Assembly: GCA_001275005.1 (NCBI GenBank)
Contig: JWZX01003134.1
Coordinates: 1 to 50,808 of the forward strand
DNA from: Chrysochromulina tobinii
Taxonomy: Eukaryota
Length of the DNA stretch: 50,808 nucleotides
Reading direction: 5' to 3'
Shown: positions 8,778 through 28,501 of the stretch, piece by piece
Layout: the number at the start of each line of letters is the position of its first letter
Position numbering within the stretch: the stretch's first letter is position 1
Position numbers and translations under genes: made by a program
Notes under the pieces: generated by a model
The model's database searches: none
The model's input: only the letters and a program-made list of their open reading frames with translations
Told to the model about the DNA's origin: nothing

Positions 8778-9418
8778 GGACGACGCGCCCGCACCCCTGC
8801 TCCTCACGAGGTCTTCCCAGGCAGAGTACCATTCATGCGAGTCCCTCTTTCGTTCATATGAACTGCACATATGAACACACACACGACTTGTTCGTGGCTT
8901 GGTTGGGTGCTGGGCGCAGTGCGCGCGCGCAGTGGCGCTGTGTTGTCTTCACGGTACGCCGCCGCTGTGTTGTCGTTGCCAGAAGCTCTTGCTGGGGCGG
9001 AGCTCGCACCGCCCCGGCCCGCGCATCAGAGGCATCCGCAGTGGACTCGTGTGCGGGAGTGCTGTCGCATGGTGCGGTCGTGTCACGTGTCAGTCAGTCA
9101 GTCAGTCAAGTCGCAATCCCCCCGCGCTCACCGACTCCACCGTCTCTAGGTCTCTTGCTCTAAAATGCACCGCCTCGCGCTCGACGGACGGCTGTGCCGG
9201 CTCGGAGTGTCGGTCCCTTCGCCCACCGACGGGCCCCGAGCGACAACGCAAGTACGCCGAACTCGGAACGCAGAGTACAGTGCTTGACTGCGTGTCCCAG
9301 GCTCCCGGCTCTCCCCCCGGTGGCTTTGTTTAAACGGGTACTGGGGACTTTGTACGGGGTACAGACTCCACACGAAGGCTGCCCTCAGAGAGATACCCCC
9401 TGCTACTTCTCGTTTCAC

Positions 9419-10874
9419 TCAGTCGCTCGTCAGGAACTCGAGCATGGAGTCGAGGTCGTCGCCAAACTGGGCGTGGGCTTGGACGGCGCGTGGTAGGCTG
9501 AAGCCCATCGCGAGGAGGGTCTGCACCTCTTGGCTCAACGAGAGCTCGTCGGCGCTTCCCGTACTCCCCGCGCCGCCACAACCGCCGCCGCCGCCGCCGC
9601 CCCCAACCCCGCCGCCGCCGCCGCCACCGCTGCCGCCGTCGCCGCCGCCCACCTGTACAAACGGTGCGCCGGCGGCCGCGGCGGCCGCCGTCGCGGGCGC
9701 GCTCCGGGTGGGCGCCATGGCGGGCGCCCAGGGGCTGTAGACTGGTAGTGCGGGCGGCTTGGCGAAGTCATGCACGTCGAAGGGGCTGGGCGCGCTCGCT
9801 ACAGTGCTCACGGCATCAGCGTCCGACCCCGTATGCCCGCACGAGGCGGAGGGCTCGCTGGCGCCGCCGAAGGAGACACCGCTCGCGTCCCCGCTCGCGT
9901 CTCCGCCCCATGCGGCCTCTCCGGCCCATGAGCCGATACCTGTGGGGAGAGAGGGGAACAGGCGCCGTCGTGAGCACTTGCATGCAGGCCCAACAGCTTC
10001 TGGCCACTCCGGCCCATGCGACGATACCTGCGCCTGGCCAGCTGGCTGCAACTGCTCCACCAGCCCACCCGACGCCAGCCTCGGCGGCGCTCGCGGCGAG
10101 GGCGGCCTGGAGCAGCGCGTCCTGCGTCGCGTCCACGTCCGACGCGTCCCGCGCGGAGAGCAGAAGCTGTGACTCGATCGCGGACGTTTCGGACGCTTGC
10201 TGAGCTTGCTCCACCTGCATGCGATCCGCGAGCCCCGGGTGGAAGCCCGGGAGGCCGAGGCCGTCGCCCACGTCGGCTACGGTCGGGTCGACGATCACGT
10301 TGTAGTGCGACCGGCCGTGGTAGCTCAGCCGCAGCGGCGCGCCCGCCTCGCCCTCGGACGGCGCTGTGAACGTATTCATGGGCGCCTCCGTGTCGCCGCG
10401 CACGTCAAAGACGTGCACGGGCCGGTTGTAAATCTCCGAGATCGCCTGGATCTCGAGGTGGTTGCCGAACACGCGGTCGCGCCGCTTGCGCCGCAGGTAC
10501 GCGTCAAAGTCCTCGGTCACGTACTGCGAAAAGTGGTCACGCTCCTTCTCCATGTGATCGAGGCACAGCCGGCGCACGACGTCGTGCATCTCGGCGTCGC
10601 CGTACACGCGGTCCGAGACGGAGCGGAAGAGGCAGTTGCCATCATCGAGCATCCGGCGGATGTGCAGGCCGCGCGCGCGCAGACGCTCCTCGAAGCGCCG
10701 CTCCAGCTCCACGTACTCCGCCGCGGAGATGGGCTGCTGGTCGAGCTCATCGTCCGAGTTGACCGGCTCATAATTGTCTGCGCTTGGGCGCGGCGGTGCG
10801 CGCGCGGCGGAGGGCCGGGGCTCGTAGCTGATGTTCTGCGGCGTGTACTCGTCCAACGGGTCGATGCGCGTCAT
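9419..10874 (-). CDS. OTU-domain deubiquitinase (OTUD5-like) with UIM-like and C-terminal UBA domains (exons 10874-10028, 9939-9419)
   Basis: DDGNCLFRSVS catalytic Cys box, GNHLEIQA, LSYHGRSHYN His box; LLQAALAAS; LLAMGFS...AVQA UBA; an 88-nt phase-1 intron joins the two ORFs; start may lie further upstream. Confidence 0.9.
9940..10027 (-). other. Spliceosomal intron with a 26-nt duplication of the downstream exon and the TGCATGCAAGTGCTCAC acceptor module
   Basis: CAG|GTATCGTCGCATGGGCCGGAGTGGCC...CCCCACAG|GTATCGGCTCATGGGCCGGAGAGGCC. Confidence 0.85.
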
Positions 10875-11246
10875 GAGGGCGGCTGAAGCGCGCACACACG
10901 GTTCCGACCCTATTCCTGCCAGAGCGAGCGCTTCGCAAAATGCAACGCCGAGACGACGCCTGCTCGAACGAAGCCGCATGCAAGGGGGGAGGGGGGAAGG
11001 GGGGGTGCGGGATTGGTAGCCGGGCTGCCCAGGAGCGTGTTGAAGTCATTCTGATGCACACGCTTCCCGGCCGCGGCCCTTCCCTGCGTTCCTCGGTCTT
11101 GAAGTCCTTCATTGCAGCCTTATTGCGGTCGTGGACGTGTATGGTCGCACACGGTCCATCTCCATGAAGAAAGGGGAAGTCTCAGCCCGCGGTCCCGTTG
11201 CGTTCGCATGTAGATCTCTCGAACGCGTCTCGTATGCATCTACCGC

Positions 11247-12420
11247 TCACAGCCGTGGTTTCATCAGGCGCCACTTCAGGCGGAGGGCGAGGCGCGGCGT
11301 GTCCCTGATGCGACAAGACATTCGCTGCGCTGCGAACTGCATCGTGCATGCGCGTGCTTTATCAAGGGCCCTGGCAGTTGCACGGGGTTTTCGCCCCGGC
11401 GTCTGCAGCGCCTTCATCACGCGGTTGTAGTGCACGTCCATGTTGTGCCCGCATGCTCGCGCGCGGCTTCCTCCACGCGCTGTCGGTGTCGGCGAGCGCG
11501 GCGTCGTCCACGGCCACGCTGAGGTTCTTGGCCATCAAGAGCTGGAGCCCGAGCGTATAGGCCTGCCCGCCGTCGAGCTGCGACGGGTAGGTCCTGTGCA
11601 TGTCGAGATCACAGGTGATGCAGTGAGTGCGTGCGCGATCAAGGGAGGCACTCAGGTGGCAAGCAGGGCAGCGCACAGGGTGGGGGCGATCGTGACGAGG
11701 GCGCCCGCGCCGACGAGGTGGGCGGCGAGCGCCTCGACTCCGGGACGGAGAGCGCCGACGGCGCCGCCTACATAGTAGCGGTCGCCGGCGTCCTCATCGA
11801 GTAGCAGACGCAGGGGGACGACCAGATCCGCAACCATGTGGTTGGCTGCGGCCTGCTGCTTGGACAGAGGGCGCTCCTCCTTCCAGTCAAGGACGCGTGC
11901 ACGTAGCCGGGGGTTTTTTCGGCTTGTTCATTGAGTGTCTGCTCTTTGGGACGGTCCGCGTCTCTTGCCCGCCACGTCCCCGAGGGCGCTCCTCCTTCCA
12001 GTCAAGGACGCGTGCACGTAGCCGTTGCTGCTTGAGTGCCTCCGTATCGGGGCGGAAGTGGCCAGCTGTAGAATCGCGGAGGCGGACCTCGCCGCGAGCC
12101 CGCGCCGACGAGGTGGGCGGCGAGCGCCTCGACTCCGGGACGGAGAGCGCCGTTCACCGCCGTCCAAAGACCGCTCGGCACGAGCACGACCTCGTCGTCA
12201 TCCGGCTTGAGACCCTCGCGCAGCGCGTGCTCGTAGTGAGCGTGCGCCGTCAGGATCTGGTTCGCCTCGGCCTCGGGCGGCGGGCGGGCAGTCTGCCTGC
12301 CGTCCACGCCGTACGACCTGTCGAAGCGCGAGGATCGATCCGGGCCTGTCGCAAACCTGTCGCACACCCAAGCCACAAGTGGCCTCCACCAGCACGAGGT
12401 AAGCAGCCACGGCCACATGG
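11247..12420 (-). pseudogene. Fragmented, internally duplicated coding-like sequence of unknown origin
   Basis: Protein-like fragments in shifting frames; exact duplications 11703-11757=12098-12152 and 11867-11909=11982-12024. Confidence 0.4.
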
Positions 12421-12776
12421 GCCGCCTTGCCCTCATCCGAGATTGGTGCTCTCCCAACCTCGTCGAGCGAGCCGGTGTCCGTTCGCATCCCTGTGAAGAA
12501 GCGCATGAACGACTTGCGATCCCGGCGCAGACCCAAACCCACGCACCCAAGCAAGCAAGCAATTAAGCAAGCAAGCAACACCCAGGAATATCTCGGGATA
12601 CCTCCGCCGGCGAGCATGAGTGCACACACACAGACAGGATCACAGGTCGTACAAGACCGACGCACTGGGGAGGGTTCAGCTTCCCACAACAAATGTAACG
12701 GTTGTTTTTGAGTCGTCTTTGCAAGTGAGGTGGGCGCTGGGCGCGGAACAAAACGCGGTCGCGCGCGCGGCCGGAG

Positions 12777-14825
12777 ATGACGCTCGAGGCAGGGCAGCCG
12801 GTGCTCAAGGTGAACCTGCGCAAGCTCAAGCAGCGCCTGATCGACACCGACGAGCTCATCGGTCTGTACAGTACCGCGCGCAGCCGTGAGGACTTCCTGG
12901 AACAGTCGGTGTTGCAGGAACGCCGTGCAAAAATGGCCGCTGAAGCGGCGATCGCGGAGAGCGAATCACGTTGTCGGACGGCACTTAGGACCGTCCGTGA
13001 ACGCGAGGAGGACATGGCGGTGCTGCGGCAGACCGTCTGCGAGCGTGAGGCGGAAGCAACGGCGCTGCGGCAAACCGTGCGTGACCGTGAGGCGGTTGCG
13101 ACTGCGCTTCGTAAAACCATCCGGGAGCGCGAGGCCGAAGCAACAGCGCTGCGGCAGCGGCTGTCCAGTCTCGAGGCCGAGATGAAGGAGGCCCTTAATG
13201 CCGAGAAGGACACTAGGCTGGCGGCGCAACGTGAGCTCGCGGCGGAACGCTCGAAACGCCAGGCTGACGGCGCAACGCCCGAACCGCGTCGAAAAGCCGA
13301 CCGCAGCCAAGAGCACTCCGACGAGCTGCCTCCGAAGCGCGCTCGGCTGAGCTCGAGCTCCGCGCCAAACCTCGAGGAGTCGGGCACGGCTGTGACCGCT
13401 GTTCCAGATGCTGGACGCACCAGCACCGCCAGCAGCAGCAGCAGCAACTTGAGCGCGGCGGGATTGTTACCCGACTCAGTCATCACGACCGCTCGGCGCG
13501 GTAGCGTCACGCTCGTGCTCCGCATGCTCGAGGGCGAGCTGATGAGATGGCTCTTCTCCGCCTGCGCACTGCGCACAGCTGATGCAGCCACTCCTCTGAC
13601 CAGTGTGGTCATACAGCCCTCCGGCGTCGGTGCCGCCTCGATCGAGGTGCTGCAGAAGCTGCTGAGCGAACGCGGCGACGATTGGATGCGCGAGTGGCTG
13701 AGCGGGCTCGCGCGCGCTATCGTGGGCACTGACCGGTGCCTGCCGCTCGCGCCGCCCAGCTTGCAGCGCGCCGTGCTGGCGTGCCATCTCTTTGCGTCGT
13801 GCTGCCGCGAGCGAGGCGACATGAAGCGGGTGCGCGTCTTGTGTTTCGACCTCGCCCGCTACCGCCGATGCGACGAGGCGGCCCTGTTGGCCGCGCTCTG
13901 CAGTGCGTGGCCACAGGCTCTGCACTCGAAGGGCTGCGACGTACATATGGAGTTGCCTAATATGGACGAGCCGGCAACGATGGCGTGGCAGCTGCAACCG
14001 GGAGCACCGATGATCGCCGTGCTGGCGCTCCGCCTACGCCGACAGCTGGAAGCCACGCGGGGCGAGCGGCGCGCCCTCCTCGAGCGTGCGCGCACGGCGC
14101 TCGTACGATACGGCGGGCGCGCGTGGGATGGCGCGTGGGATGGCGACGGGGACGTGAGTAGACGACGCCCAACGGACGCGATCGAGTCTCAACTGATTGA
14201 ATTCCTCATCCACTCTCTGCTCCGTTCGGGCGCCTTGTCGGGCGCCGTGACGGGCGCGCGTTCACCCGAAGTCCAACGGCCATCGGCAGCGAATGGCCGG
14301 ACGAGCGCCGTGACGAGCGCGCCCGGAACGACGCCGCAGTCTCGTCAGCCAACCACACTCCCGATGGCCAGCGCCGTGGAGGGCTGTGTGGCGCTCGAAT
14401 TGCTGGCCGCCGGGTGTGAATGGAGCTGGACTGTGAACACATTGATTCGAGGCAAGCTGCTGCCGCTGCTCGCACCCGAGCAGGGTGCACACGTGTCGGC
14501 GCTGCTGCGGCTGCTGGGGCGGTTGGGGCAGCTCGCTCCTAATATGGAAGACCCGGGCGTCTCGTGGTTGCGACAACAGCTGCATGCTGTGCTCGGCGTC
14601 GATGCGCCCACGACGGCGCCGCGCTTCTCGCCGGCTGAGGAGGCCTGCGCTGTCGCCGCGCTCCTCGAGCTGGTGCCACCCGGGACGCCCGCGCACGAAG
14701 CTCGCGGCGCCATGCAAGCCATCGAGCTCTGGTTGCGCTCACAGCCTAAGTGTTGGGAGCAGGCTGTGCCGGCCGCGCTCCGTGATCGTTACTATGAGTA
14801 TGCACGCGAAGATCGCGAGTTGTGA
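12777..14825 (+). CDS. ICE1: ICE1-like protein (little elongation complex subunit 1-like), compact form
   Basis: N-terminal LKQRLIDTDELIGLY plus coiled coil; C-terminal CRERGDMKRVRVLCFDL, ALELLA...WSWTVNTLI and LLRLLGRLGQL resemble both conserved ends of animal ICE1 as recalled. Confidence 0.6.
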   Translation: MTLEAGQPVLKVNLRKLKQRLIDTDELIGLYSTARSREDFLEQSVLQERRAKMAAEAAIAESESRCRTALRTVREREEDMAVLRQTVCEREAEATALRQTVRDREAVATALRKTIREREAEATALRQRLSSLEAEMKEALNAEKDTRLAAQRELAAERSKRQADGATPEPRRKADRSQEHSDELPPKRARLSSSSAPNLEESGTAVTAVPDAGRTSTASSSSSNLSAAGLLPDSVITTARRGSVTLVLRMLEGELMRWLFSACALRTADAATPLTSVVIQPSGVGAASIEVLQKLLSERGDDWMREWLSGLARAIVGTDRCLPLAPPSLQRAVLACHLFASCCRERGDMKRVRVLCFDLARYRRCDEAALLAALCSAWPQALHSKGCDVHMELPNMDEPATMAWQLQPGAPMIAVLALRLRRQLEATRGERRALLERARTALVRYGGRAWDGAWDGDGDVSRRRPTDAIESQLIEFLIHSLLRSGALSGAVTGARSPEVQRPSAANGRTSAVTSAPGTTPQSRQPTTLPMASAVEGCVALELLAAGCEWSWTVNTLIRGKLLPLLAPEQGAHVSALLRLLGRLGQLAPNMEDPGVSWLRQQLHAVLGVDAPTTAPRFSPAEEACAVAALLELVPPGTPAHEARGAMQAIELWLRSQPKCWEQAVPAALRDRYYEYAREDREL

Positions 14826-15029
14826 GTCGTGTGCTGCTTTAGGTGAGCAGAAAGGCGGAACAACTGTATGAGTGCGTTACTGCCTCACGACGGTTCTCGC
14901 GATCTTCAGTAGTCTTTCGAGCTCTTTCTCTGTCCCTGATTCTCTCGCCCCGTCCGCGCAAGTTCCGGGTTCCCTCGACGCGAGTCGACGACTCTCCACC
15001 GACTCCCCACACAGACTTGACTGGTGTGA

Positions 15030-15057
15030 ACCCTGTTTTTCTCACGAAAAGCCAGGT
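15030..15057 (+). promoter_or_regulatory. 28-bp intergenic element, copy 1
   Basis: ACCCTGTTTTTCTCACGAAAAGCCAGGT; exact reverse complement at 28438-28465; lies 100 bp upstream of an ATG; regulatory role is inferred. Confidence 0.5.
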
Positions 15058-15156
15058 CGTCGCACGTCGTGCTCCTTCGGAGCGAGCCGCGTATCTCGGA
15101 AATTCAATTCCGAACAAAACCCCACAAGACTAACCGCCGTTCTGAGCGCGTCGTCA

Positions 15157-15975
15157 ATGCGCGCCGCCTTCCTGTTCGCTGCCGCCGTGCTTCCGGTGGC
15201 TCTGAGCGCCAATCCGGCCTTTGACCACATTGCCGGCCTGCACCTGAACGCGTCGAGCTTTTACACCACGCTGCATGCGGGCGACGCGGGCCGATGGTTT
15301 CTCCTCTTCTTCTCTCGGAATTGTGGCCACTGCGCGGCTATGCTCCCAGCATGGCAGGAGCTGGAGGAGCGACTCGGCGCAAGCGTGAGGGCGGTGCGAC
15401 TGGGCGCAATAGACGCCGAATCCGAAAAGGTCGTCGCAGACCGCGTGGACATCCACGGATTCCCGACGCTGATGGCCATCGAGGCGGGCTGGTTGTATGA
15501 GTACCACGGCGGCCGCTCGGCCGACGAGATGCTCGCCTTTGTCGAGAGCGACGATCTCGCTGCCGTCGCAAAGGGCTCGCGACGGCTCACGTGGGCGCCA
15601 TCGTCCTGGGACCCGCTGCTGCGCGTTCCCGATGCCCTCCGCGAGATTTGCGGCTATGCGGTGCAGACGAGCCCGCTTGCCGCCGCGCTACTCGCCTCTG
15701 CGCTCATCTGCGTAGGGATGATGCTCGCGCGAGCGACGACGCCGCTCGATGCGCCCTTTGTCACCGTAGCGTGCCCCGAAGGCGTGCTGCCCGGGCAGAG
15801 CTTCGTCGTCGAGTTTGTCAGCGGGCGCACGAGGCTGTGGCCGCGCGGCCGAACGAAGCGCATGCGGGTGGAAGCACCGCCAGGCATTCATCCGGGCCAA
15901 ACCTTCTTCGTGCCGCTCATGCCCGCGGCGCCCGCGCGCGCCCCGGACAAGAAGGGCGCGGACAAGAAGGACTGA
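15157..15975 (+). CDS. Secretory-pathway thioredoxin/PDI-like membrane protein (TMX-like)
   Basis: Signal peptide MRAAFLFAAAVLPVALS; CGHC active site; GFPTL cis-Pro loop; TM segment; C-terminal KKD dilysine-like signal. Confidence 0.85.
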   Translation: MRAAFLFAAAVLPVALSANPAFDHIAGLHLNASSFYTTLHAGDAGRWFLLFFSRNCGHCAAMLPAWQELEERLGASVRAVRLGAIDAESEKVVADRVDIHGFPTLMAIEAGWLYEYHGGRSADEMLAFVESDDLAAVAKGSRRLTWAPSSWDPLLRVPDALREICGYAVQTSPLAAALLASALICVGMMLARATTPLDAPFVTVACPEGVLPGQSFVVEFVSGRTRLWPRGRTKRMRVEAPPGIHPGQTFFVPLMPAAPARAPDKKGADKKD

Positions 15976-16487
15976 TATAGGCGTGGCGACTGTTCAAAAA
16001 TGAATAATTCAACTGAGCGTGCGCGCGGGCACTGGGGCGCTGCAGATGGGATACGTCTATACACGAGATAGGCCGCTCGCTCCGGTGGTTTTGCAGGTAG
16101 TTAATTCCCTGTACCCGCGCCGTAATGGCGTTTGTACTCACGTCCCAGACGAGACGAGACCATAGGCTAGTATATACATAAATCACGACCTCGCGATGTG
16201 CGATGTCGCCGACGGCCGACGCGCCACCGGTCCAACGAAGAGGACCCTTAGTCGCACGCAGACTGTTCTCTGACACGACACGCGCCAGACCACACAAGGG
16301 CTTGACACCGGCCACGGCCCGAGACATGGAAGCTGGCTCTCACGTAACAGGTCGTACGTCCGGTCAAAAGCATGCATCTCTGCTTGGCCGTCCAGAGCCA
16401 AGAGTGCTTCGCAGAACGGGAACGCGTTTCAGAGCGCGCTCAGGCGCTGTGTGCAGGTCGCCCTCGCTCCCCGTACGCCGCCGGAAT

Positions 16488-16612
16488 CCTCACGATCACA
16501 AGATGCTGGCGAGATGCCATCTCCCCACGATCACGAGAGGCTGGCGAGATGCAGACGAGATGCCATCTCCCCAGATCACGACTGGGCGGATGCTGTTCAC
16601 CATCACGAGATG
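16488..16612. repeat. Degenerate tandem repeat at the 3' end of the MAPK gene
   Basis: Recurring GATCACGAGA...GGCGAGATGCCATCTCCCCA units. Confidence 0.6.
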
Positions 16613-18236
16613 TCGAGCGCACCCGGGACTCCGAAGTCCGGGACGTCATGCTCGCCGTGCTCCTCGCGAAAGCGGAAGAGGTCATTCGCAAGCAAGATCC
16701 GAAGCTCGTTCTTGCCCAGGTCTTCGTCCTCAAACGCGAAGGCGCTCTTGACGCGCGCGGCCTCCTCCTCGGAGGCCATCGCCGTCACGCACGGCGCCTC
16801 GACCGCCGGCAGCGCGCCAAAGTAGGCAAAGCCGAGCGCCGCCGCGGCGCTCGGCCGTTTGGCGGGATCAATCTCGAGTAACGCCTTGAGGAGAGCGATC
16901 TCGTCCGGCGAGGCGCTGGGGCATGCGTCGCGCAGCTTGGCATCGACCTCCAGGCTGCGCTCCTCGTCGCCGAGGCTCGAGAGCGCCTCCTTGGCGCACA
17001 CATTCCGCACCTCCTCCACCGCCTCTGCGGAGTATCCTGCGAGCTCCGCGGAGGTCGGATCTCCCAGGATGCGCGCGATGACTGCGAGCTGATCGTATCG
17101 CTGGCGCTCGCGCTGCTCGTCGTCGAAAGAGAAGGGGATGCAGTAACGGCCAGGGAAGAGGGCGCCCGTACCTGACGTCGACACGCGAGCAAGTTTGCCT
17201 GATGAGAGAGGCACTCAGATGCCATCGGAGGCCATCAGAGGTCATCAGAGGTCATCAGAGGTCATCAGAGGTCATCAGAGGTCATCAGAGGTCATCAGAG
17301 GTCATCAGAGGTCATCAGAGGCACCCAGAGGCACTCAGATGCCATTAGTGGAGATCAGAGACCCAATCCGGGATGCCGGGGCGACCGGGGTAAGATTCGC
17401 GTACGCAGGTGCGACTGAGGAGTGAGCTCGAGCAGCTCCTTGAAGATGCACCCGACGGCCCACATGTCAATCGCTGCGCCGTACTTTTGACGTAGGATCA
17501 CCTCGGGCGCGCGGTACCATCGCGTGACGACGTAGAAGGTCATCTGAGCCCTGAGCGGCGGTGGCTTCGCCTTGAGCGGCGGTGGTTCGGCCGCCGCATC
17601 GCCACCGCCGCTCACCCCCTCGGCGGCATCCTCCATCGCGTTGTCCACCTGCGTGGAGGTCTCCTCGAGGCGCTTGGCGTACCGCGGGTTCGAGTCGACG
17701 CGCGCCAGCCCGAAGTCGCACAGACGCACGACGCCAAAGGGTGTGGCGGGCGTCACCTTGCCCGTCGAGACCAGGATGTTGGCCGGCTTCAGGTCGCGGT
17801 GGATGCCCGATATGGCGTGGACGTGCGTGAGGCCCGCGCACAGCTGCGCCATGAACGAGCGCACCTTGTTCACCTCGAGCGACTGCTTGGACTTGATGAT
17901 CCTGCGCATGTCGGACTCCATAAACTCGGTGATCATGAAGATGTCGTCGAAGGTCTCTATGTTGGCGGGCATGGCCAGCCCTCGCAGAGAGATCACATTT
18001 GGATGATGAAAGTCGCGCAGAAGCCGGATCTCGCGCAGCACCTTCTTGGCTTCCTGAGCGTCGTAGAAGACCTCCGAGATGCGCTTGATGGCGACCGTCT
18101 CGCCAGTCGCCGTCTCGACCGCACGCGCCACGACCGAGTACGCGCCACTGCCGATGAGCTTGACATTCGTGTAGTCCTTTTGCACCGCCCGATCCGCGCC
18201 TGACCAGAAGGCCTTCAGCTCTGCCTCCGAAGCCAT
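16603..18236 (-). CDS. Mitogen-activated protein kinase (exons 18236-17405, 17171-16603)
   Basis: IGSGAYSVV, VAIKRI, LREIRLL, HRDLKPANIL, CDFGLAR, TFYVVTRWYRAPE, LFPG, DQL; a 233-nt phase-1 intron joins the frames. Confidence 0.92.
17172..17404 (-). other. Intron containing a 10-bp (CTCTGATGAC)n array
   Basis: C|GTACGC...GTCAG|GTACGG; 8 exact GTCATCAGAG units on the plus strand (17241-17320) plus degenerate flanking units. Confidence 0.85.
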
Positions 18237-18511
18237 GAACAAATTAGGGGCCTCGTTCACACGCGCGTCATTACACGGAAACATCGTTATACACTGTTCG
18301 TACAAAGCCTATTCAGATATGGATGCTATGGAAATGGATGACACCTGTACATACTCTATGCAGGGAGGAGAGGGTTGCACCGCTCGTGGCGCTATGCGCC
18401 GCTCTCCCGCGACCCCACTGATCTCGCATCTTTATTCGGCGAGGTATCTTTTCGTCGCCTCCACACCAACGTCGGTCTCACGGAGCGGTACAATAGAGCC
18501 TTTAGAGCTCA

Positions 18512-19543: not shown

Positions 19544-20053
19544 TGTGAGTGCCGACTCGGAGACGGTCAGAGGTGCGGTGTTTGTACCCTCAGAGAGCTG
19601 ACAGCTGAGAGGTCCCCCACACGCCCAGATGGCCAGATGCCATGTCATTGTGCGACATGTCATGACATCTTGCCCCCCACACGCCCAGATGGCCATGCTG
19701 TCGCACAAGGACCCTGTCTGCTCCTTTGAGCGCTCAGCATGGCGCTCTTGCTCATCCGCATCAACGGATTCGCGCTGCCTTGGTCCTTGGTGAAAAGATT
19801 ACCCTATACCATACCGATCTAGTGAACTGACCGGTCATGCGAGTGATGCGTGTTCACATGTGCATGATCGAATGATTGTGCGGGTGTGCATGTGGATGTG
19901 TCGTGTCGTGTCGCATGAAGGTGGGCCCTTACGTTAAAAAGGCTATACCGTACCCGGTACATGTGGCGAAGGTATCCGCGACGCGTAATCGTTGTGCTGT
20001 TCAACACCTAGACGGAAGACGCGCGTCTCGTTTCGAACGCGAGTGTGACGGGC

Positions 20054-21400
20054 TTAGAGTCGCCGGCTCGACGAGTTGAAAGGCGGCAGCAACTTGTTGG
20101 CATTTGTCAACTCCCGCTGGATTGAGTAGTGATCTACGTTGTACGTCGTGGGGTCGAGCGTCTCGTCGATGACCGACACACACCTGGCTGTTTTGCCGGC
20201 AAAGGCTGACGATCCCAGCTTGCTCACACTTCCCGTGTTAAGGCGCTCTGGATCGTAAGCGCCGCCCTCTGGTGTGTCGTTCTTGCGTATGTAGCCGCGA
20301 AGCGGGGCCCGACTCGTGAATGAGGCGCTGCCACTGGCGCTCGAGGCCTTCCGAACGGTCTCACCGCACCCGTAGAGGTGATGAAAGTCGTAGCTCCCCG
20401 GACCTCGTAACGGCTCCTCGAAACCAGTGGCTGCGCACGCGCAGCGCGCCGTGCTAGTGTTGAATCCAATGCTGCCACTCTGCACGCGTCGGTTCAACGT
20501 CTGGCGGCTGGTAGCACTGATACTGGCCTTCTCGAGAGCATACTCTGAGTACGCAGTTGGGTCGCCCTCCTCTCCAAACCTGGGAGCAGAGCGATCCTCG
20601 TTGAGCTTCGACATGAAATTGCCCATGCCCTGCGAGACGAGCTTGTTGTGAGATTTCCTGGAGCGCACTGCGATCGTGTGCTGGTTGACCTCGTACGCAC
20701 CCGGAGCTGGGCGTGGAGACCGGGATGAGTCCTTGGCCGGCGAATCGTAGGCATACACCTTACGTTTGGGACTGCTGTCGGTGCGCGCGGGACTGCCTCG
20801 CGCTGAGGAGCAGCTTTTCGTCTGCGATGGCATGAGTCCAGGACTGGCTCGGGCAGAGCAGCAGCCCATCTTCGACGTGGCTCGTTTTGCTATGGCAGCA
20901 GACGGTGGCGGTTTAGAGCTGCAGGCCAACAATGGTATGGTGGCAGGCGGTGGCGCGGTTGCAGGCGGCGTTGCGGTGGCAGGCGTCGGTGCGACGGCAA
21001 GTAATGGCGCAGCAGCTGGCGGCGATGATAGCGTCTGTGATGCGGGTAATGACGGCGATGTGGCGGCAGGTGGCAGTGTAGCTGCCAGTAGTGCGGATGT
21101 CGTTGGTCTTGCATGTACTTGTAGCGAAAGCGAAGGCGATGCCGGGGCAGGCAACGCCAGCGGTGCAGATAGTGGCCACGGTTCTCGCGAGGAGGACAGC
21201 GGAAATGGTGGTGCTGCTGGAAGAGATACTACGGCCGCCAGCGGCATTCGGCGATTGTTGCCCTCCTCGAGCTGCACATATGCCTCAGACTTGGTTAGAC
21301 CGCGGCGCCTATGGATACACTTGATACACATAACCAAGCCGGAAGTAGCGACGGTGAGCCCCAACAAGATGGTTGCTGTGAGCACCTTGTCCTGATCCAT
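20054..21400 (-). CDS. Protein with SHIPPO/PGP-like repeats (STPG/ODF3-like), an N-terminal hydrophobic segment and a Pro-rich linker
   Basis: APGAYEV, RGPGSYD, PEGGAYDP and DPTTYNV, each followed by a Phe-containing spacer. Confidence 0.55.
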   Translation of the reverse strand: MDQDKVLTATILLGLTVATSGLVMCIKCIHRRRGLTKSEAYVQLEEGNNRRMPLAAVVSLPAAPPFPLSSSREPWPLSAPLALPAPASPSLSLQVHARPTTSALLAATLPPAATSPSLPASQTLSSPPAAAPLLAVAPTPATATPPATAPPPATIPLLACSSKPPPSAAIAKRATSKMGCCSARASPGLMPSQTKSCSSARGSPARTDSSPKRKVYAYDSPAKDSSRSPRPAPGAYEVNQHTIAVRSRKSHNKLVSQGMGNFMSKLNEDRSAPRFGEEGDPTAYSEYALEKASISATSRQTLNRRVQSGSIGFNTSTARCACAATGFEEPLRGPGSYDFHHLYGCGETVRKASSASGSASFTSRAPLRGYIRKNDTPEGGAYDPERLNTGSVSKLGSSAFAGKTARCVSVIDETLDPTTYNVDHYSIQRELTNANKLLPPFNSSSRRL

Positions 21401-21691
21401 CGTTGCTAATGAAATGCCGCGCTGCACGCCTGGACGGACGCGGTCTGGTATGGAAGCAGCGCGCCGTTTTTCGCAGTTCGTGTCAAGTTTGTGTTCGATA
21501 TCTTGCGAAGTTACGCATTTACTATCGAAGGGCAGTTGACCGTAACGAGCTTATTTATCCCGGGTCTCTGAAAATAGCCGTATGCGCGCGATGCGCGGCG
21601 CGCGGACTTCGACACAGTTTCAAAACTTGCGAGTTCAGTCGTTCGTCGTGTGGGCAGTGCGGGGCGACCTCCACACTCCCGATTCCGCCGG

Positions 21692-22441
21692 ATGTCGATT
21701 TCTGGACGGGCCCTGGATTTGCCCCTGCCGCTCGAGTACAAGAAGGACTTTTGGGGCAGCAAGCGCACCGCCTGGCCCCACTTTACTGAATCTCTGAAAG
21801 TGGGTGGCCTCACGTCGCCACGCGCGTCCAACGACTCGGCGTTCTCCCCACGATCACGCCTCCCTGCTGTGGGCGACTCACCGCAGAGTCCGCGCGGCGA
21901 GTCGCGTGGATTCGTCGACTCAGGCCCCAAATCTGCACGCGGACTCGCCAAGTTGGGACTCACGGTCGTGGAGAGCTGGCCGCCTGCGTGGACCCAGCCC
22001 GATTTCCCAATGCCTCAACGTCCCCCGCGGCATGCTGCCGAGTTCTCATATCCACGACCGCTCTGTTTCAGCGGCCTGGGGCAGCGTCCGCCCGCGCAGG
22101 CCACAGCTCGCCGTACGCACGTCTTTCAGCCAGGGTGGAAGGAGCCGCCGCGCAGGTGGGCCACGGAGCTGCTGGTGCCTGGACATAGGACATTGACAGC
22201 ATCGGTGGAAGAAAAGAGCGTGTCCCCCTACTCGGACCTCGAGCGCACGCAAAAATCTTTCGTCGCCGCCCTAAATCCCCAGGGACCGATACGCCCGCGC
22301 TGGTTCGACCCGATCGTTGGCGTGATGGTCGTCGAGGCGAAACGAGACAAGATCGACTTCACCACCACCTCGAGCTCCATCGGATCATGGCGCAATCAGT
22401 CTATGACTATTTCAAGCGACCCTTTCAACGACTCCCAGTGA
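21692..22441 (+). CDS. Hypothetical protein
   Basis: ~250-codon ORF divergent from the previous gene; no recognised motif. Confidence 0.5.
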   Translation: MSISGRALDLPLPLEYKKDFWGSKRTAWPHFTESLKVGGLTSPRASNDSAFSPRSRLPAVGDSPQSPRGESRGFVDSGPKSARGLAKLGLTVVESWPPAWTQPDFPMPQRPPRHAAEFSYPRPLCFSGLGQRPPAQATARRTHVFQPGWKEPPRRWATELLVPGHRTLTASVEEKSVSPYSDLERTQKSFVAALNPQGPIRPRWFDPIVGVMVVEAKRDKIDFTTTSSSIGSWRNQSMTISSDPFNDSQ

Positions 22442-22464
22442 GGTGCGCATCGATACGCACCTCC

Positions 22465-22660
22465 AGTGAGTGAGAGTGAGTGGATGCGTGTGAGTGAGTG
22501 AGTGGATGCGTTTGAGTGAGTGAGTGAGAGTGAGTGGATGCGTGTGAGTGAGTATGAGAGGCAGAGTGGATTGAGTTGAGTGCGAGTGATAGAGTCTCCG
22601 GAGGGTGTGAGACAGGTTTCAGAGCGGGGTCGAGAGTGAAAGTGTGACCTGAGTGGGTGA
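22465..22660 (+). repeat. (GAGT)n / GAGTGGATGCG-type microsatellite tract
   Basis: Repeated GTGAGTGAGAGTGAGTGGATGCG units. Confidence 0.85.
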
Positions 22661-23184
22661 TTGTCGCTCTCGCGTCGCGAGAGTGGGGCGGGGCCGGCGG
22701 AAATATGAATGGCCGCGAGTGTGCCCCCCACAGCTGGAGCCTGGTCCGCGCGCCCTGTGCGCGCTGCGCGGGGTGTCCGGTGTCGCACCGCGGCACCGGC
22801 AGTGTCGGGCGTCGCCGGACGCCGTCGCCGAGCAACGAGAAATCGTATAGCGGCGGGCACTGGGGCGGTCGCCTGTCGGCGGTGACTCCGCCACGGGGCC
22901 CGTGGCGGCCGTGAGCCTGACGGGTCGGGTGGGGGGGTGCGGCGTGTATGAGAACCGTGCGGCCCAATTCTCCAATTGGCGCGGGCGCGCGGCCCGGATA
23001 TCCGGATCGTACGCGCATGATGCGTACGGCGATCGTATTTATAACGGCGATGGCCGAGATGCGCCGGGCGGCGGGCCGGAATGGGCCCGGGACCGCCCCG
23101 GGCGCTCGCCGGGCCCTCGGCTCAATAGAGCGTCCAATCACCAAAGCTGCGTGGTGAATTCGGAGTTCATAAACTGTGGCTCTT

Positions 23185-23925
23185 TCACGACGCGACGCTG
23201 ACGCGCAGCGCCACACAGTCCTCTACGCGCACGCACACCTCATTCCTCCGGAGCCACGAGGGCGTAATGAACGGGTCGTGGTATCCATATACGAGTGTGC
23301 CCTCGTCGCCAGAAGCCGAAGGCTTGAGCCCGGCCGCCTTCACGGCGCTCAGGATCGCTTGCTTCTCCTTCTCGACACGCTGCTCCGACGGCGGTGGTCC
23401 GCTGAAGGTCCGCGCGGCAAGGATGTGTGGCTGCACCTTGCGCACCTTGACGTCGCGGCTGAGCGGCGCAGGCGCTGTCTGCGGGCTGTACCTCTTCTCG
23501 AGCACAAATGAGATGCGCGTCGTGCCCTCGCTCGGTGCGATCCGCACGGGCGCCGTCATCGCCATCGTCACGCCATCACTTGTTGACATCCGCACCGGCG
23601 CAGTCATCTTCATCTTCTGACTGGGTTTGTTCTTGCCAAAGATGTAGCCGGCGACGGTTCGGAAGCCCGTGCTGCTGGCTTCGCGCATGCTGCTCGTCTT
23701 CACAGCTGTTTCGGCGATGGTGTAAGGAGCATACCGACGCAGCTCCACGCCACCCGGTAGCTTTCGGATGACCGTGTAATCCGGCCGCTCGAGAACGTTG
23801 GCCGCCCGCCATGCAAAGATGCCGACGCCGAGCCGCGCCGCGCCGAGCACGGCAAGCAGGACTGCGAGAACCCGGCCGATCGCCCCAAGGTTTAGCGAGC
23901 GACCGATCACGTGACTCTTGAGCAT
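23185..23925 (-). CDS. SOUL heme-binding protein
   Basis: ERPDYTV...ELRRY, GFRTVAGYIFGKN, MTAPV (twice), YHDPFITPSWLRRNEV. Confidence 0.92.
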   Translation of the reverse strand: MLKSHVIGRSLNLGAIGRVLAVLLAVLGAARLGVGIFAWRAANVLERPDYTVIRKLPGGVELRRYAPYTIAETAVKTSSMREASSTGFRTVAGYIFGKNKPSQKMKMTAPVRMSTSDGVTMAMTAPVRIAPSEGTTRISFVLEKRYSPQTAPAPLSRDVKVRKVQPHILAARTFSGPPPSEQRVEKEKQAILSAVKAAGLKPSASGDEGTLVYGYHDPFITPSWLRRNEVCVRVEDCVALRVSVAS

Positions 23926-24185
23926 TTTTCGCGCTGATCGTCGGCGCAGTCGCGCAGCAAACTCACAATCGATCTCGGAACGCGAAGGCTGAGGGTGTGC
24001 GGGGCAGATTTCCGAACCGTCGGCGAGTATCGAGTGGGAGTGCTGGTCAGAATTATCAATACGTGGCTTCTGCGTACTTTGCCTGAATTACATGTACACT
24101 ACGTCTTGTGCATCTGATTACTGAGATACATCTCTCTCTCACTCTCTCTCTCTCTCAAACTCAGTCCTTCCGACGGCCTGCTGGA

Positions 24186-24813
24186 CTATTTCGCCTTGGC
24201 CTTGGCTAGCCTCGCTGCTCGTGCCTTGCGCGCCGCGGCGTCTGCTGCTGCTTGCTCAGCCTCCTCGGCCTTCTTGCGTCGCACTTCCGCAGCGGAGAAG
24301 AATGGCTGCAGGAGCTGGAGTACAAAAGCTTGGAGCGCGAGCACGATCTTCCAATTGTTGGCGAGGTAGACGACGAGCTACGCAGCAGGACAGTGCGGGA
24401 GGAGAGTTAAACGCGTGTCAGCGGCGGCCGTAGCGAACGGGCTCGCGTCGCTGACGGTGGCAAAGGAGCAGAGAGCGCGCGCAAGTGATCAGGGCGGCGG
24501 AGAGGCTCTTACGAGCGAGCCGAGAGTGAGCTGCAATCCACCACTCGGAGGCGTCAAAGGTGCCTGCCCCTGGCCGGCGAACGCGGCCGGGTTCATGCCT
24601 GGCTGCTGCCTCGCTTTGGTTGAGAATGGTGCGGGCGCCTCGCCGTTGGGAGTCCATTTGGCATCGAGCGCGGTAGTCAGCGCAAACGTCTGCGGGCAAG
24701 CGCGTACGCTTGGGCGGTGAGCACATCACGAGCGTGCAAATTGGCCACGGGCGAGGCGGATGGATGAGCGGCGACTAACACACCAGAGCTAGGATCCACG
24801 AGCGCCACCACAT
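24186..24813 (-). CDS. Small (~73 aa) membrane protein absent from the ORF track (exons 24813-24784, 24377-24186)
   Basis: Spliced product MWWRSWILAL|LVVYLANNWKIVLALQAFVLQLLQPFFSAAEVRRKKAEEAEQAAADAAARKARAARLAKAKAK*; GTGTGT donor and pyrimidine-rich TAG acceptor, phase 0. Confidence 0.5.
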
Positions 24814-25158
24814 AGAGGAGAGAGTCTCCCTCGACTTGCTCGGCGAGGAGAGCGCGAGGAGCGTGCGAGATCGTGTTGTCGATGTCGTTGCAAAAACGGA
24901 AACGCCCATGGACGATTTCGTACAGGGAGTTTTTCTCGAGCGTCGTGCTGGCGACTGCGAACGAAGTATGCGGCTCTCCTCCTGCTTCACCAGCAAGCCC
25001 TCGCGCGGGGCGCGCGCAGCGTTAGAAGTGGCGGGTGCGATCTGCGCCTGAAGGGTCGGGTGACAGGGTGGCAGCTCTGCGTGGCTTTCGAGCGCCGACA
25101 CCAGCGGTTGACGTGCCTTGTGTGCCGCTTCGCCGCGTCGCAGGTTCATTTCAGAGCA

Positions 25159-25599
25159 ATGGGTACAGGCAGCGCGCCGGCTCCCTTTCCCGTGATCAAC
25201 CGCAAGCCGACTTTGGGCGCGACACTGCGCAACTTCACGTTTGGCGACTTGTGCAGCATGTTCGGATGCACCGTTGCGGGCGGCGTGTGGGGCTTTGCGG
25301 CGGGTGCGCACGCTGATTCTCTACGCTCAGCGCACCCTGCACGACCTGGCTTGTAGCTTTCGCGCTGAACTTGCCTGCATCGCTCTTTCCGCCGTCTAGT
25401 CGCTCACTCCCTGCCGCCCGATCGTTTGCGTGCCGCAGGCAAGCCCCTTCGGCGGCATGGCAGCATCAATCTCGCTATGACTGCGTGCTCTGTCGCCTTT
25501 GCCTACTCCTTCCAGGCCTCGTGGCACCGGCTCACCGGCCAGCGGCCGAACGAGTCCGAGTGCTACTACGCCGGCGTCCCCTTCGAGAAAGTGAACTAG
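25159..25599 (+). CDS. Mitochondrial complex I accessory subunit, NUXM/20.9-kDa (NDUFB1-related) type (exons 25159-25303, 25439-25599)
   Basis: FPVINRKPTLGATLRNFTFGD...GFAAG|KP...FAYSFQASWHRLTGQRPNESE; 135-nt GT-AG intron. Confidence 0.75.
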
Positions 25600-25935
25600 A
25601 TAGCGCCCTTCATCTCAGCTGAGAGAGAGCGAGCGCATGCATGACATCGATCACCGCGTCAAGCATCGATAATGTTGTTTGACATAGGCCCCTTATCAGG
25701 GTCCGCCTGGACCCAAGTGTATTCGTATTCGCGACGGTACTCAACACGGCGTTCATTGACATAATTTGGTGCAGTCCTGTGATTAGTACACATCGGTAAA
25801 AGGCACGCGGGGCGGAGCCGGGACACACGGTTGACGGTTGACGGTTCACACACACGGCGGACCGGTCCGACTCACGGTCACACGAGCAGGCGGAATCGAG
25901 TCCGTTCATTCCGAACTTCGTGCGGGTACGTCGTA

Positions 25936-27837
25936 ATGAGCGCCGTCGACCCATACACCATCTTCGACAGCGTGGTGCCGCCAACAAGCGAGCCGGTCGC
26001 GGGCAACGACCCTTTCGACTGCTTTGGCGCGCCGGCGGAGCATCAACCGGCCAAGCGGCCATGCAGCTCGCCATCGCCAGTGCTCCCGTTGATTCGCCGC
26101 TTTGTGGCTGCACACGTTGGCGATGCGATCGCAGACTTGAGAGCGGCGAGCTCGTCTGCCGCTGCTACGCTCGCGTCCCATCTGAGTGATGCAGCGGACC
26201 ACTTGGCAGCCGTACCGGCCCAATTTTCCGGCTGCCGGTCCGCTGCGGAGAGCGTGGCTGACGCGGCGTGGTCCACGCTCACACAAGATGGCGCGTGGCC
26301 TCACGCTTCGTGGCGAGAGGCGTACGTGCTCGCGCAGCTCGCACTGGCCGCCGTGTGCTCGGCATGTGACAATGACACGGATGCCGCCCTGCGCTGCCTC
26401 GATAGGGCCTTCATCCTCGGTGGGCCCACGCAAGTGTTCCGCGACTGCGTCGAGATCCTTGACGAGCCAAAGCCGCAGAGAGCACGGCGATCAACGGGTC
26501 CACTGCCGACGGCCGACATCAACGAGGACGCGCCTGCTGCAGAGCCGTGGAGGAGGCGTCTGGAGGAGGTGCGACGTGCCCGTGACGGCGCGCCGTCTCG
26601 GGCGAGGCTTGCTGTTCGAGCCGTTGAGCGACAACCCTGCCCTCCGACGGCGCAAGCGTTCCGCGCGGCGCGGCGTGGCGGCGCTCCGCTTCTCTTCGAG
26701 GGCGTCGCCGACGGCTGGCCCGCACTTGAACAGTGGCAGGACTTTGGCTGGCTGCGCGACCAATACGGCGCGCGGCTCGTACCGGTAGAGCTGGGGAGCC
26801 TCGCGAACGCGGCGGGCGCCGTCGTGGGCGCGACCGCCGTGGGCGCGGTGGGCGCCGTCGTGGGCGCGACGGGCGCCGCCGCGGGCGCGACGGACGCCGC
26901 CGTGGCCACCGCCGCTGCGACGGATGGCGCCTCGATGGGCGGTGCGACGAGTGGCGGTGCGACACAGCCTGGCGCCCACCATGGCGCGTGGAGGGAGAAG
27001 TTGATGCCGCTGGCCGACTTTGTAGACACGTTCTTGATGGCTTCGGAGCCCGGCACGGAAGGCCACGCCGCGGCCGGTAAGGCGACAGCTGAGGCGGCCG
27101 GTGAAGCCGCCGAGGACGCGCAGGCGCGACACCCTCACGCCGTGTCGAGCGCCCGCGCCGTCGTGGGCTACCTCGCACAACACAATCTCTTTGAGCAGAT
27201 CCCGCGGCTGCGTCGCGACTTTGCGATCCCGGCGCTGCTCGCGGGCGGCGTGCAGCACATGCACGCGTGGCTTGGCCCTGAGGGCACAGTGACGCCTCTT
27301 CACTTCGACTCGTACGACAACGTGCTCGTGCAGGTCGTCGGCCACAAGCTCGTGTATCTCGAACGGGCCTCGAACCTAATCTGGACACCTCGCCTTGCAT
27401 GCAAGTGCTCACCACAGCGCCCTGCAAAAGCCACGTGCCTCGAACCAAATCTGGACACCTCGCCGTGCATGCGAGTGCTCATCACGGCGCCCGCTCCTCT
27501 TCCCCACAGGTCCCTCTTCGACTCGGGTCAGACGCCGCGCCTCTATCCCAAAGAGGGCGGCGGCACCGGCGTCGATGCCCAAGGCAACGTGAGTCCTCTG
27601 ATTACCTCTGATTACCTCTGATTACATCTGAGTACCTCTGATTACCTCATGCTCATCTTTGGTCAGGTGAGTGCGGTCGACGTCGAGGCGCCCGATATGG
27701 GTCGCTTCCCCGAGTTCGCGCACGCCGTCGGGTACGAATGCGTCCTCGGTCCGGGGGAGGGCCTCTACATCCCGGCGGGCTGCTGGCATCACGTGCGAAG
27801 CCTCAGCCCGTCGTGGTCCATCTCCTTTTGGTTCTGA
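25936..27837 (+). CDS. JmjC-domain hydroxylase, JMJD5/KDM8-like (exons 25936-27353, 27510-27588, 27667-27837)
   Basis: [74 protein letters not shown]. Confidence 0.92.
27354..27509 (+). other. Stop-free 156-nt intron with two tandem ~70-nt units carrying the TGCATGCAAGTGCTCAC module
   Basis: GT|GTATCTC...CCCCACAG|GTCCCTC; removal restores HKLVSLF; units start at 27367 and 27437. Confidence 0.8.
27589..27666 (+). other. 78-nt intron with a (CTCTGATTAC)n array
   Basis: AAC|GTGAGTcc...GTCAG|GTGAGTgc; ~5 ten-mer units; removal restores GNVSAVDVE. Confidence 0.9.
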
Positions 27838-27942
27838 TGGTGCGGCGCATGTGTGCCGCGAGCATGACAGCGCATCATCTCTCGTCTCTAGTTGATGAAA
27901 CAGTCTACTCTGGATTTCAAGTCCGTACACATTGCTTATGAC

Positions 27943-28365: not shown

Positions 28366-28437
28366 TGAGCGCTCGTGCGGAATAGTTGCGGAATGCGAAT
28401 TCGTCAAGCCTGCAAGGTCAACTTTGGATTCAACTCC

Positions 28438-28465: not shown

Positions 28466-28501
28466 CACGCGCGTCAAAAGTGAGGGAGGGCCTCGCGTTG
28501 C

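Follow-up and report, generated by a model that had tools for sequence, protein, structure and literature searches.

The short module shared by the 3' ends of introns in two unrelated genes probably represents the core plus acceptor arm of a mobile family of very short repeats that makes introns and leaves long target duplications. We regard this family as an introner family with unusually long and variable target duplications, whose mode of movement we infer. Introns of this kind would be built from two sources, with the branch point, the pyrimidine tract and the acceptor, or else a donor arm, coming from the element and the other splice site from the gene's own duplicate, and the footprint of this construction is still legible at dozens of sites.

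Copies of the module inside and outside the window

In the window, by which we mean the whole stretch of 50,808 nt of DNA that was analysed, the three module copies pointed out by a sequence-only reading (9986-9940 on the minus strand, 27466-27509 on the plus strand and a third from 27396) were confirmed in position and string. A 16-letter pattern with up to two mismatches allowed gave three matches, all with zero mismatches, against 0.15 expected from 100 shuffles, none of which reached three. Profile HMMs derived from copies outside the window were significant at exactly these three places (E 7e-11 to 3e-6) and nowhere else in it, and only two of the seven RNA-supported introns of the window carry the module.

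Outside the window, one metagenome scan recovered at least 177 copies at no fewer than 139 loci, drawn from several assemblies and possibly several strains or species; the scan demanded an exact 20-letter core, and core conservation is therefore not readable from these copies. Taken together with the three copies of the window they form at least 165 distinct site clusters, which bears out the earlier impression of a mobile-looking cassette present in many copies rather than few. Prokaryote genomes totalling 596 Gb contained three matches to the same pattern, and viral contigs none. The host genes are unrelated, including CAP-Gly, helicase, GH127, GT8, CYFIP, ABC, MFS and TrmO genes among others, and module and gene share a strand in 15 of 17 loci marked by Pfam, representing 14 of 16 genes, so that the sense orientation claimed from the two window genes extends to the family and is not random. 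Two loci, L087 and L094, have a 47-nt unit in common and different exons. Pairwise comparison of the recovered loci yielded no clean case of an empty, pre-insertion site or of a presence/absence difference.

Architecture of the element and its flanking repeats

The core of the element measures 25 nt and includes a CTCAC branch-point-like motif. Form A combines the core with an acceptor arm, consisting of a pyrimidine tract and CACAG, and form B combines it with a 29-nt donor arm (GTACGTTGATTGCC...), the two forms being separated by a diagnostic core base in a by-eye reading of the matches. Other arrangements comprise both arms (a 74-nt unit at locus L006), the core alone, and tandem arrays, with another core found within 140 nt after 23 of the 177 copies, among the matches listed.

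In form A, the sequence separating exon and core duplicates the exon downstream of the intron, beginning at AG|GT, and this GT serves as donor. Form B instead has a repeat of the upstream exon following the core, with the AG acceptor at its end. In either form splicing takes out the element and exactly one repeat copy, restoring the coding sequence, and the repeat donates the GT in 55 sites and the AG in 10. The variable 5' part of the module, previously taken as the mark of a 5'-truncated retro-insertion, is hence mostly a duplicate of each locus's own downstream exon that provides the GT donor, although a retro-insertion route may still apply.

Flanking repeats with a score of at least 15 accompany 104 of 154 copies, compared to 9 of 95 shifted controls (median score 18 versus 8). 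Among the matches listed, the 165 sites divide into 55 of form A, 10 of form B, 17 with a core-only repeat, 41 with another repeat that fits neither simple form, 32 without a repeat scoring 12 or more, and 10 with a short flank. Repeat lengths in A and B sites range from 14 to 46 nt with a mode of 20-24 and no fixed value, and the 65 repeats include 23 that are perfect and 24 with one mismatch, 15 being both perfect and at least 20 nt long, which lends at most indirect support to a recent gain. A pyrimidine tract followed by YAG lies 35-59 nt past the core start in 94 of 155 sites, versus 11 of 118 random positions, and the next exon begins with GT or GC in 77 of those 94. The description as an acceptor module of intron 3' ends thus holds for the majority, but not for the approximately 40% of sites that have a donor arm, a core-only repeat or a tandem array instead.

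The edges of the element differ between the forms. With strict matching, 41 of 54 form A sites keep 0-4 nt of the 5' arm and the other 13 keep 5-19 nt, and divergent remnants reaching about 20 nt can be discerned by eye. In form B, 8 of 10 sites keep 25 nt or more of the arm and, again by eye, the repeat often resumes directly after the core. Filler between repeat and core is variable (0-37 nt), and the repeat shows no sequence motif at its far edge. Terminal inverted matches do not exceed 3 nt in the consensus of form A, in that of form B or in the 74-nt unit. An A-rich or simple-repeat 3' tail is absent, form A ending in the pyrimidine tract and CACAG and form B just past the core, and the RNA folds were not superior to those of shuffled sequences (z 0.54, 1.24 and -1.36). 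A search for a known Rfam family returned a single miRNA match, which at E 0.32 lies far below the cut-off and was rejected.

The two module-bearing introns of the window

The OTU-domain gene, marked by a minus-strand Pfam match (about 10301-10643, E 8e-18), contains an intron in which 15 nt of filler connect the first target-repeat copy to the module (Table 1). Its RNA joint, 9933>10022 with cut +6 and CT..AC on the plus strand, was recovered in two of four runs (X13 and X16) with a shorter side of 143 letters, and 9 letters fit on either side of it. This ambiguity fits the 29-nt repeat, the two copies of which are identical at 25 of 29 positions. What had been read here as truncation of the element at its variable 5' end is a repeat of the exon, 10030-10002 matching 9942-9914.

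Table 1. Features of the two introns that carry the module, with positions in the window.
Feature	Position	Strand	Basis or remark
OTU gene: intron, 88 nt, spliced	9940..10027	-	C-terminal tail of OTU-domain gene; RNA contig joint
OTU gene: 25-nt core with CTCAC branch-point-like motif	9962..9986	-	pattern match; HMM A, E 7e-11
OTU gene: acceptor arm, pyrimidine tract ending CACAG	9940..9961	-	end coincides exactly with RNA-supported 3' splice site
OTU gene: repeat copy 1, CAG + GTATCG..., 29 nt; its GT is the intron donor	10002..10030	-	repeat score 20
OTU gene: repeat copy 2, from the last CAG of the intron into the downstream exon	9914..9942	-	sequence and repeat comparison
JmjC gene: intron, 156 nt, spliced	27354..27509	+	KDM8-like JmjC (Cupin_8) gene; RNA joint 27353>27510, GT..AG
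JmjC gene: core copy 1, intron-internal, without acceptor arm	27396..27420	+	pattern match, HMM
JmjC gene: core copy 2 (27466-27490) and acceptor arm (27491-27509)	27466..27509	+	arm end coincides with 3' splice site
JmjC gene: locus-specific 32-nt stretch preceding core 1	27363..27394	+	repeat comparison
JmjC gene: second copy of the 32-nt stretch, preceding core 2; tandem period 70	27433..27464	+	repeat comparison

The intron of the JmjC gene, for which Pfam detected Cupin_8/JmjC and a KDM8-like N-terminus on the gene strand, consists of two tandem 70-nt units and is in frame without a stop codon. The ORF 25783-27618 runs through it, and the Cupin_8 match stops at the intron. Its joint was present in three of four runs (X12, X13 and X14), with a shorter side of just 20-28 letters. 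An old target repeat between this intron and the downstream exon was not significant (p 0.21 and 0.42).

Splicing and coding evidence

All six module introns that were compared with RNA, in the form of assembled contigs rather than reads, are spliced GT..AG in the sense direction, and the ambiguity of their joints (9, 2, 23, 13, 6 and 6 letters) tracks the exactly matching start of the repeat. The module introns observed are 66-156 nt long. At one locus, L012, four introns interrupt helicase motifs that, in a by-eye reading, are coded once when the exons are joined; a Helicase_C Pfam match was obtained in a longer ORF there, and the short helicase exons gave no Pfam match at E <=0.01. RNA depth at this locus amounts to 29-149 in core-holding bins versus 0-28 elsewhere, with many divergent loose ends. 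GC3 phase was continuous after in-silico intron removal in 17 of 21 clear cases and without removal in 4 of 21. A parameter-free strand caller was right for five of seven known segments, with both errors in the low-complexity OTU tail, and its counts serve as support only.

Insertion mechanism and rival explanations

The flanking repeats would represent target-site duplications arising from insertion. The element would enter an exon and duplicate 14-46 bases of its target, one copy of which would join the new intron, and the exon insertions that survive would be those where the duplication gives an in-register splice site and the intron is long enough. Unequal exchange between the repeats may generate tandem arrays, and may also remove an intron precisely. 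For the enzyme route we tentatively favour target-primed reverse transcription, or a comparable process with staggered nicks, given that this is how long duplications that vary in length are known to arise. The 34 long ORFs of the window include no reverse transcriptase or transposase as a partner enzyme. A more specific proposal, which we consider rather improbable, is that the spliced-out intron RNA is itself mobile, its 25-base branch-point core being recopied into exons by target-primed reverse transcription without a promoter of its own; the introns would then be half element and half 14-46-base exon duplicate, with gain and loss reversible via the repeats. If true, this would be the smallest intron-generating element known.

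It is conceivable, although we think it unlikely, that the repair of staggered double-strand breaks captures abundant intron-derived RNA or cDNA as filler, with overhang fill-in creating the repeats and selection keeping spliceable events, and hence without any dedicated enzyme. Such repair would be congruent with the broad, unfixed repeat lengths, the motif-free far edge, the variable filler, the lack of terminal inverted repeats and of a partner enzyme in the window, and the abundance of the core in RNA contigs. The ends of form B are nevertheless defined, considering how regularly its arm is kept and how often the repeat restarts right past the core; furthermore, subfamilies marked by a diagnostic base argue for copying from masters, and hundreds of captures of one 25-nt core require a special source. 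Intron gains in Daphnia with short flanking direct repeats were reportedly ascribed to break repair by Li et al. in 2009, and Rogers is said to have put forward in 1989 the origin of an intron by tandem duplication of an AGGT-containing exon segment. As in these gains, host direct repeats bracket the intron here and one splice site stems from the duplicated exon. Unlike in them, every site here has one and the same foreign core, and thus the events draw on one repeated source, not on unique filler or pure duplication.

A non-autonomous, MITE-like DNA transposon, mobilized by a transposase that cuts its target with a long stagger, seems quite improbable. We know of no eukaryotic transposase that makes duplications above about 15 bp. 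The defined ends of form B would agree with such an element, as would the observation that published introners are mostly DNA transposons whose duplications donate a splice site (from parts of PMC9860276 and 10.1101/2020.10.14.339549); the terminal inverted match of at most 3 nt does not, nor do duplications without fixed length that are several times longer than the 3-9 bp given for introners in the relevant part of PMC9860276. Convergence on a selected, optimal branch-point, pyrimidine-tract and acceptor signal without any mobility would account for these signals and for their position at intron 3' ends in 94 of 155 sites, but it is highly improbable, as the identity spans 25 nt and extends far past the splice signals, most RNA-supported introns of the window lack the module, the core is also found lacking an acceptor, arranged in tandem or joined to a donor arm, and the locus-specific flanking repeats are left unexplained.

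Comparison with known systems

Introner-like elements of Aureococcus and Micromonas were reportedly described by Huff et al. in 2016, ten-base intron repeats may occur in Emiliania, and the element presented here is far smaller than any SINE known to us. Closest at hand are the introners published for marine MAGs of the haptophyte Chrysochromulina sp. (Gozashti et al. 2022, PMC9860276), which, according to parts of that paper, are likewise short (family means 75-108 nt), GC-rich, provided with GT donors, present in hundreds per genome and more than 90% genic. One of these families resembles form B in having its own 5' splice site, a 3' site from the duplication and no inverted repeats. The same parts of the paper assign it a 4-bp duplication and most families a '?', in contrast to the 14-46 nt observed here, corresponding to a third to half of the intron. 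A 12-letter piece of the core, searched on both strands, had no occurrence in the portion of the supplement of PMC9860276 at hand, which gives tables, not family sequences, and the C. tobin genome paper (PMC4580454) holds nothing on intron repeats.

The introner-like elements of Symbiodinium and Polarella glacialis, as set out in part of 10.1101/2020.10.14.339549, similarly recruit splice sites flexibly and fall into several classes per genome; they have fixed duplications of 4, 5 or 8 nt, and many of them carry inverted repeats, as opposed to a 25-nt core with long, variable duplications and none inverted.

With target-primed elements, that is non-LTR and Penelope-like elements (Craig et al. 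2021, PMC8557442, in part), the family has in common variable and sometimes long duplications, head-to-tail partial tandems, non-autonomous derivatives and perhaps 5' shortening. It departs from them by the lack of a tail, of a ribozyme or known RNA family and of a partner in the window, and by the shortening of form B on its 3' side. We also note that form A, with strict matching, has a 5' edge that stays within 0-4 nt at most sites, which together with the missing tail and the 3' shortening of form B has to be set against a target-primed route. Among the introners that have been classified, about 5% derive from non-LTR elements (PMC12130899). Replitrons (PMC10288648) were considered and rejected, for they have comparable variable duplications but are kilobase elements with direct terminal repeats.

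Implications

The long and variable duplications suggest an insertion chemistry other than that of the cut-and-paste transposases on which most of the literature centres. Direct repeats around new introns would moreover give a simple way of losing an intron precisely. Such introns are sometimes in frame and free of stops, as exemplified by the 156-nt intron of the JmjC gene, and each holds a second coding copy; gene predictors and protein-based annotation can therefore misread them. The organism, an alga, is in culture and both DNA and RNA data sets exist, making this a testable system.

Copy number and anatomy of the element

A sequence-only reading had proposed that introns of an OTU and a JmjC gene share a module of about 45 nt. 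Indeed, both strings and a third copy are present in the window where it placed them, and its gene orientations agree with Pfam, with Cupin_8 on the plus and OTU (PF02338, E 8e-18) on the minus strand. Searching the window for a 16-letter pattern and tolerating two mismatches at most recovered exactly these three copies, each without mismatch, against an expectation of 0.15 matches, and 0 of 100 shuffles reached three. The window DNA is nuclear and gene-dense with a GC content of 57-70%, and it encodes kinases, thioredoxin, CRAL-TRIO, SOUL, a KDM8-like JmjC protein, a hydrolase, cyclophilin, Use1 and a mitochondrial carrier, with no transposase or reverse transcriptase among its 34 long ORFs.

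A degenerate pattern of 20 letters, scanned against metagenome contigs, yielded at least 177 copies at 139 or more loci, congruent with the multi-copy nature proposed for the module. Since the window's own loci are absent from the listed 139, that list is incomplete. Together, the listed copies and the three of the window represent at least 180 instances in at least 165 site clusters (flanks at least 88% identical, same register), which is not a per-genome count as the loci stem from several assemblies, possibly of several strains or species. Viral contigs contain no match to the same pattern, and 596 Gb of prokaryote genomes contain 3, so chance does not account for the copy count.

All copies have in common a 25-nt core, ascertained through the search pattern itself. 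Form A consists of the core, a pyrimidine tract and CACAG, while form B has a 29-nt donor arm starting GTACGTTGATTGCC, then the core and little beyond; one locus (L006) holds 74-nt tandem units carrying both arms. A single core position, read from the listings by eye, is A in form B and G in form A, which speaks for separate source copies. A second core follows within 140 nt downstream in 23 of the 177 listed copies, at spacings of 39-119, and the JmjC intron is such a tandem case with a period of 70. The element lacks terminal inverted repeats (3 nt is the longest match), folds no better than shuffles and matches no Rfam family.

The donor arm equals two units of a ten-base repeat. Other introns, in the window and in the loci alike, are filled with arrays of this repeat, to which profile matches are weak (E 0.1-0.9). 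These tandem arrays, of CTGATGACCT / CCTGATTGCA-like units in gene-sense reading, also occur in many fetched loci (L084, L016, L031, L029 and others). Separately, L079:1198-1446 and L084:844-1054 have 147 nt in common at 92.5% identity, slightly downstream of the core, which may be part of a longer core-containing repeat; AT-rich DNA lies upstream in L079. L087 and L094 have a 47-nt unit in common (a 22-nt stretch plus the core) and differ in their exons.

Flanking repeats of host sequence

For each core, the preceding 100 nt were compared with the following 146 nt, and repeats with a score of at least 15 were counted. Such a repeat flanks 104 of 154 listed copies as compared to 9 of 95 shifted controls from the same loci, with median scores of 18 and 8, respectively. 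Among the 165 sites of the list and the window, 55 belong to class A, matching form A, where the upstream copy runs from AG|GT and starts anew directly behind the AG of the module (length 14-46, median 25), and 10 to class B, matching form B, where it stops at the start of the donor arm, resumes after the core and ends in AG (length 14-32). Core-only repeats were found at 17 sites, and 41 have repeats fitting neither simple rule, many being gapped or decayed versions or arrays; 32 have no repeat with a score of 12 or more, and 10 have too little flank. The 65 class A and B repeats contain no mismatch in 23 cases, one in 24, two in 11 and more in 7, with 15 being perfect over at least 20 nt. 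No motif was found at the far edge of the repeat.

The OTU intron is of form A (10030-10002 against 9942-9914, 25 of 29 identical), whereas the JmjC intron has no significant trace of a host-sequence repeat. The variable 5' end, previously taken for a truncated element, is mainly a duplicate of the downstream exon. By strict matching, form A keeps 0-4 nt of arm at 41 of 54 sites and 5-19 nt at 13, and form B at least 25 nt at 8 of 10; by eye, several fillers can be read as diverged arm sequence, reaching about 20 nt, and some as further gapped repeat parts.

Splicing, register and strand

Contigs from public runs cover nearly the whole window for DNA and about half for RNA. RNA contigs of four runs, which are assembled contigs rather than reads, were placed on window 9000-28900, and both module introns are joined, with the module in sense and their 3' ends being exactly its CACAG. 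At the OTU joint nine letters are assignable to either side, because nine letters are repeated exactly. Five other RNA-joined introns of the window lack the module, in agreement with a profile search.

Introns of the window and of locus L012, with other repeats of the window
Feature	Position	Strand	Length (nt)	Ambiguous letters	Runs joined	Remark
OTU module intron	9940-10027	minus	88		2/4	shorter side 143 letters
JmjC module intron	27354-27509	plus	156		3/4	shorter side only 20-28 letters
L012 module intron 1			77 (skip)	23	1/4
L012 module intron 2			71 (skip)	13	3/4
L012 module intron 3			133 (skip)	6	2/4
L012 module intron 4			79 (skip)	6	1/4
Module-free intron	27589-27666	plus		6		RNA-supported; starts GTGAGT, as next exon
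Module-free intron	17172-17404	minus		5		RNA-supported; starts GTACG, as next exon
Spliced intron	24690-24783	minus				GTGCTCACC, nine core letters, similarly placed
JmjC ORF	25783-27618	plus
Ten-base arrays	17215-17321, 27595-27648, 39257-39326, 43232-43329, 44253-44291
Inverted pair	15030-15057 / 28438-28465		28			perfect; 13.4 kb between
Direct repeat	11703-11757 / 12098-12152		55			perfect; spacing 395 nt
Second duplicated stretch	~11868-11910 / 11983-12025
RNA depth zero	11656-12319
Periodic-repeat frame	33739-38205	minus				1489 residues
Tandem unit	33754-34100		39			8.9 units

A helicase gene (L012, Pfam Helicase_C) has four module introns, all joined GT..AG in sense by RNA contigs. Counting the two of the window, splicing is seen in 6 of 6 module introns tested with RNA. 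The four L012 introns interrupt what we take to be the DEAH helicase motifs GSGKT and FMTDG and the stretches just before and after DEAH. Judged by eye from the listings, the joined form codes each interrupted motif once, and each intron encloses the coding sequence once more, with slight mutations; the short helicase exons alone yielded no Pfam match. At this locus RNA depth is 29-149 in bins holding the core against 0-28 in others, and many RNA contigs diverge on either side of the core, thus many core copies are transcribed.

The JmjC ORF continues through its module intron in frame and stop-free, and retention would insert 52 residues within the Cupin_8 domain. The starts that two module-free introns share with their next exons may represent this repeat footprint in a shorter version. 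GTGCTCACC could be a decayed core copy, in an intron not reached by the profile search of the window.

In general, for a repeat-element-repeat arrangement, splicing from any GT in the first copy to an AG that immediately precedes the equivalent position in the second restores the original message. Across the 63 class A and B sites with enough flank, intron lengths are 66-156 nt (median 77) and even modulo 3 (23/21/19). At 21 sites with clear two-sided codon periodicity, GC3 phase is continuous at 17 after removal in silico as compared to 4 unremoved, and the strand call is sense at 19 on each side, using a caller that assigned 5 of 7 known segments correctly. For the full set of 63 sites the figures are 33, 50 and 43. 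An unbiased check was made using the longest ORF per strand in 58 loci: among the 17 with Pfam hits above the curated cut-off, 15 lie on the module strand and 2, both at least 550 nt away, on the opposite one. As L011 and L012 represent one gene, this becomes 14 of 16 genes (one-sided binomial p ~0.002).

A pyrimidine tract with YAG lies 35-59 nt past the core start at 94 of 155 sites and at 11 of 118 positions chosen at random, the next exon starting with GT or GC in 77 of the 94. About 4 in 10 sites are not acceptor cassettes. Of the mobile-cassette interpretation, multiplicity, sense orientation and a location mostly at intron 3' ends stand, while the 5'-truncated element is mostly not supported.

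Proposed mode of insertion

Beyond the observed anatomy, repeats, splicing and strand bias, we infer that the flanking repeats are probably target duplications produced on insertion. Selection would retain exon insertions with an in-register splice site and a workable intron length, which would also account for the minimum length of the repeats. Unequal exchange between repeats could generate the arrays, and would permit precise intron loss.

As for the enzymatic route, we tentatively favor a target-primed process with staggered nicks. According to PMC8557442, variable spacing of the two strand cuts gives variable duplications, and such elements also make head-to-tail tandems. However, the element has no tail, the shortening of form B is 3'-sided, and no partner element is seen among the long ORFs of the window. 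Repair of staggered breaks that captures nucleic acid derived from introns is a rather doubtful alternative, and a transposase of unknown kind with a long stagger appears improbable. Convergence on the splice signal we disfavor as highly implausible.

Relation to known introners

The elements are an introner family, a known kind reported from haptophytes before, distinguished by the 25-nt core, the two complementary half-forms and long, variable putative target duplications making up a third to half of the intron. Introner duplications are generally 3-9 bp (PMC9860276), as opposed to the variable 14-46 nt here, and in dinoflagellates the elements duplicate 4, 5 or 8 nt and are flexible in which splice site they recruit (10.1101/2020.10.14.339549). 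PMC9860276 also tabulates many MAGs of Chrysochromulina, from which up to 802 elements were recovered, with mean family lengths of 75-108 nt and duplication status mostly '?'; one family has a 4-bp duplication, no inverted repeats, its own 5' site and a co-opted 3' site. Non-LTR-derived introners make up about 5% of classified cases (PMC12130899). No published description of 14-46-nt introner duplications was found in the literature, which was covered in part, and one may be in print.

Other repeats of the window

The inverted pair is probably a different short repeat present twice, in opposite orientations. Neither the 55-nt direct repeat nor the second duplicated stretch between its copies involves the core, and RNA depth is zero across this region. 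The stop-free periodic-repeat frame is made of 15-nt and 30-nt repeats and matches no Pfam family; it has a strong strand skew (GC skew -0.23) and is adjoined by the 39-nt tandem unit.
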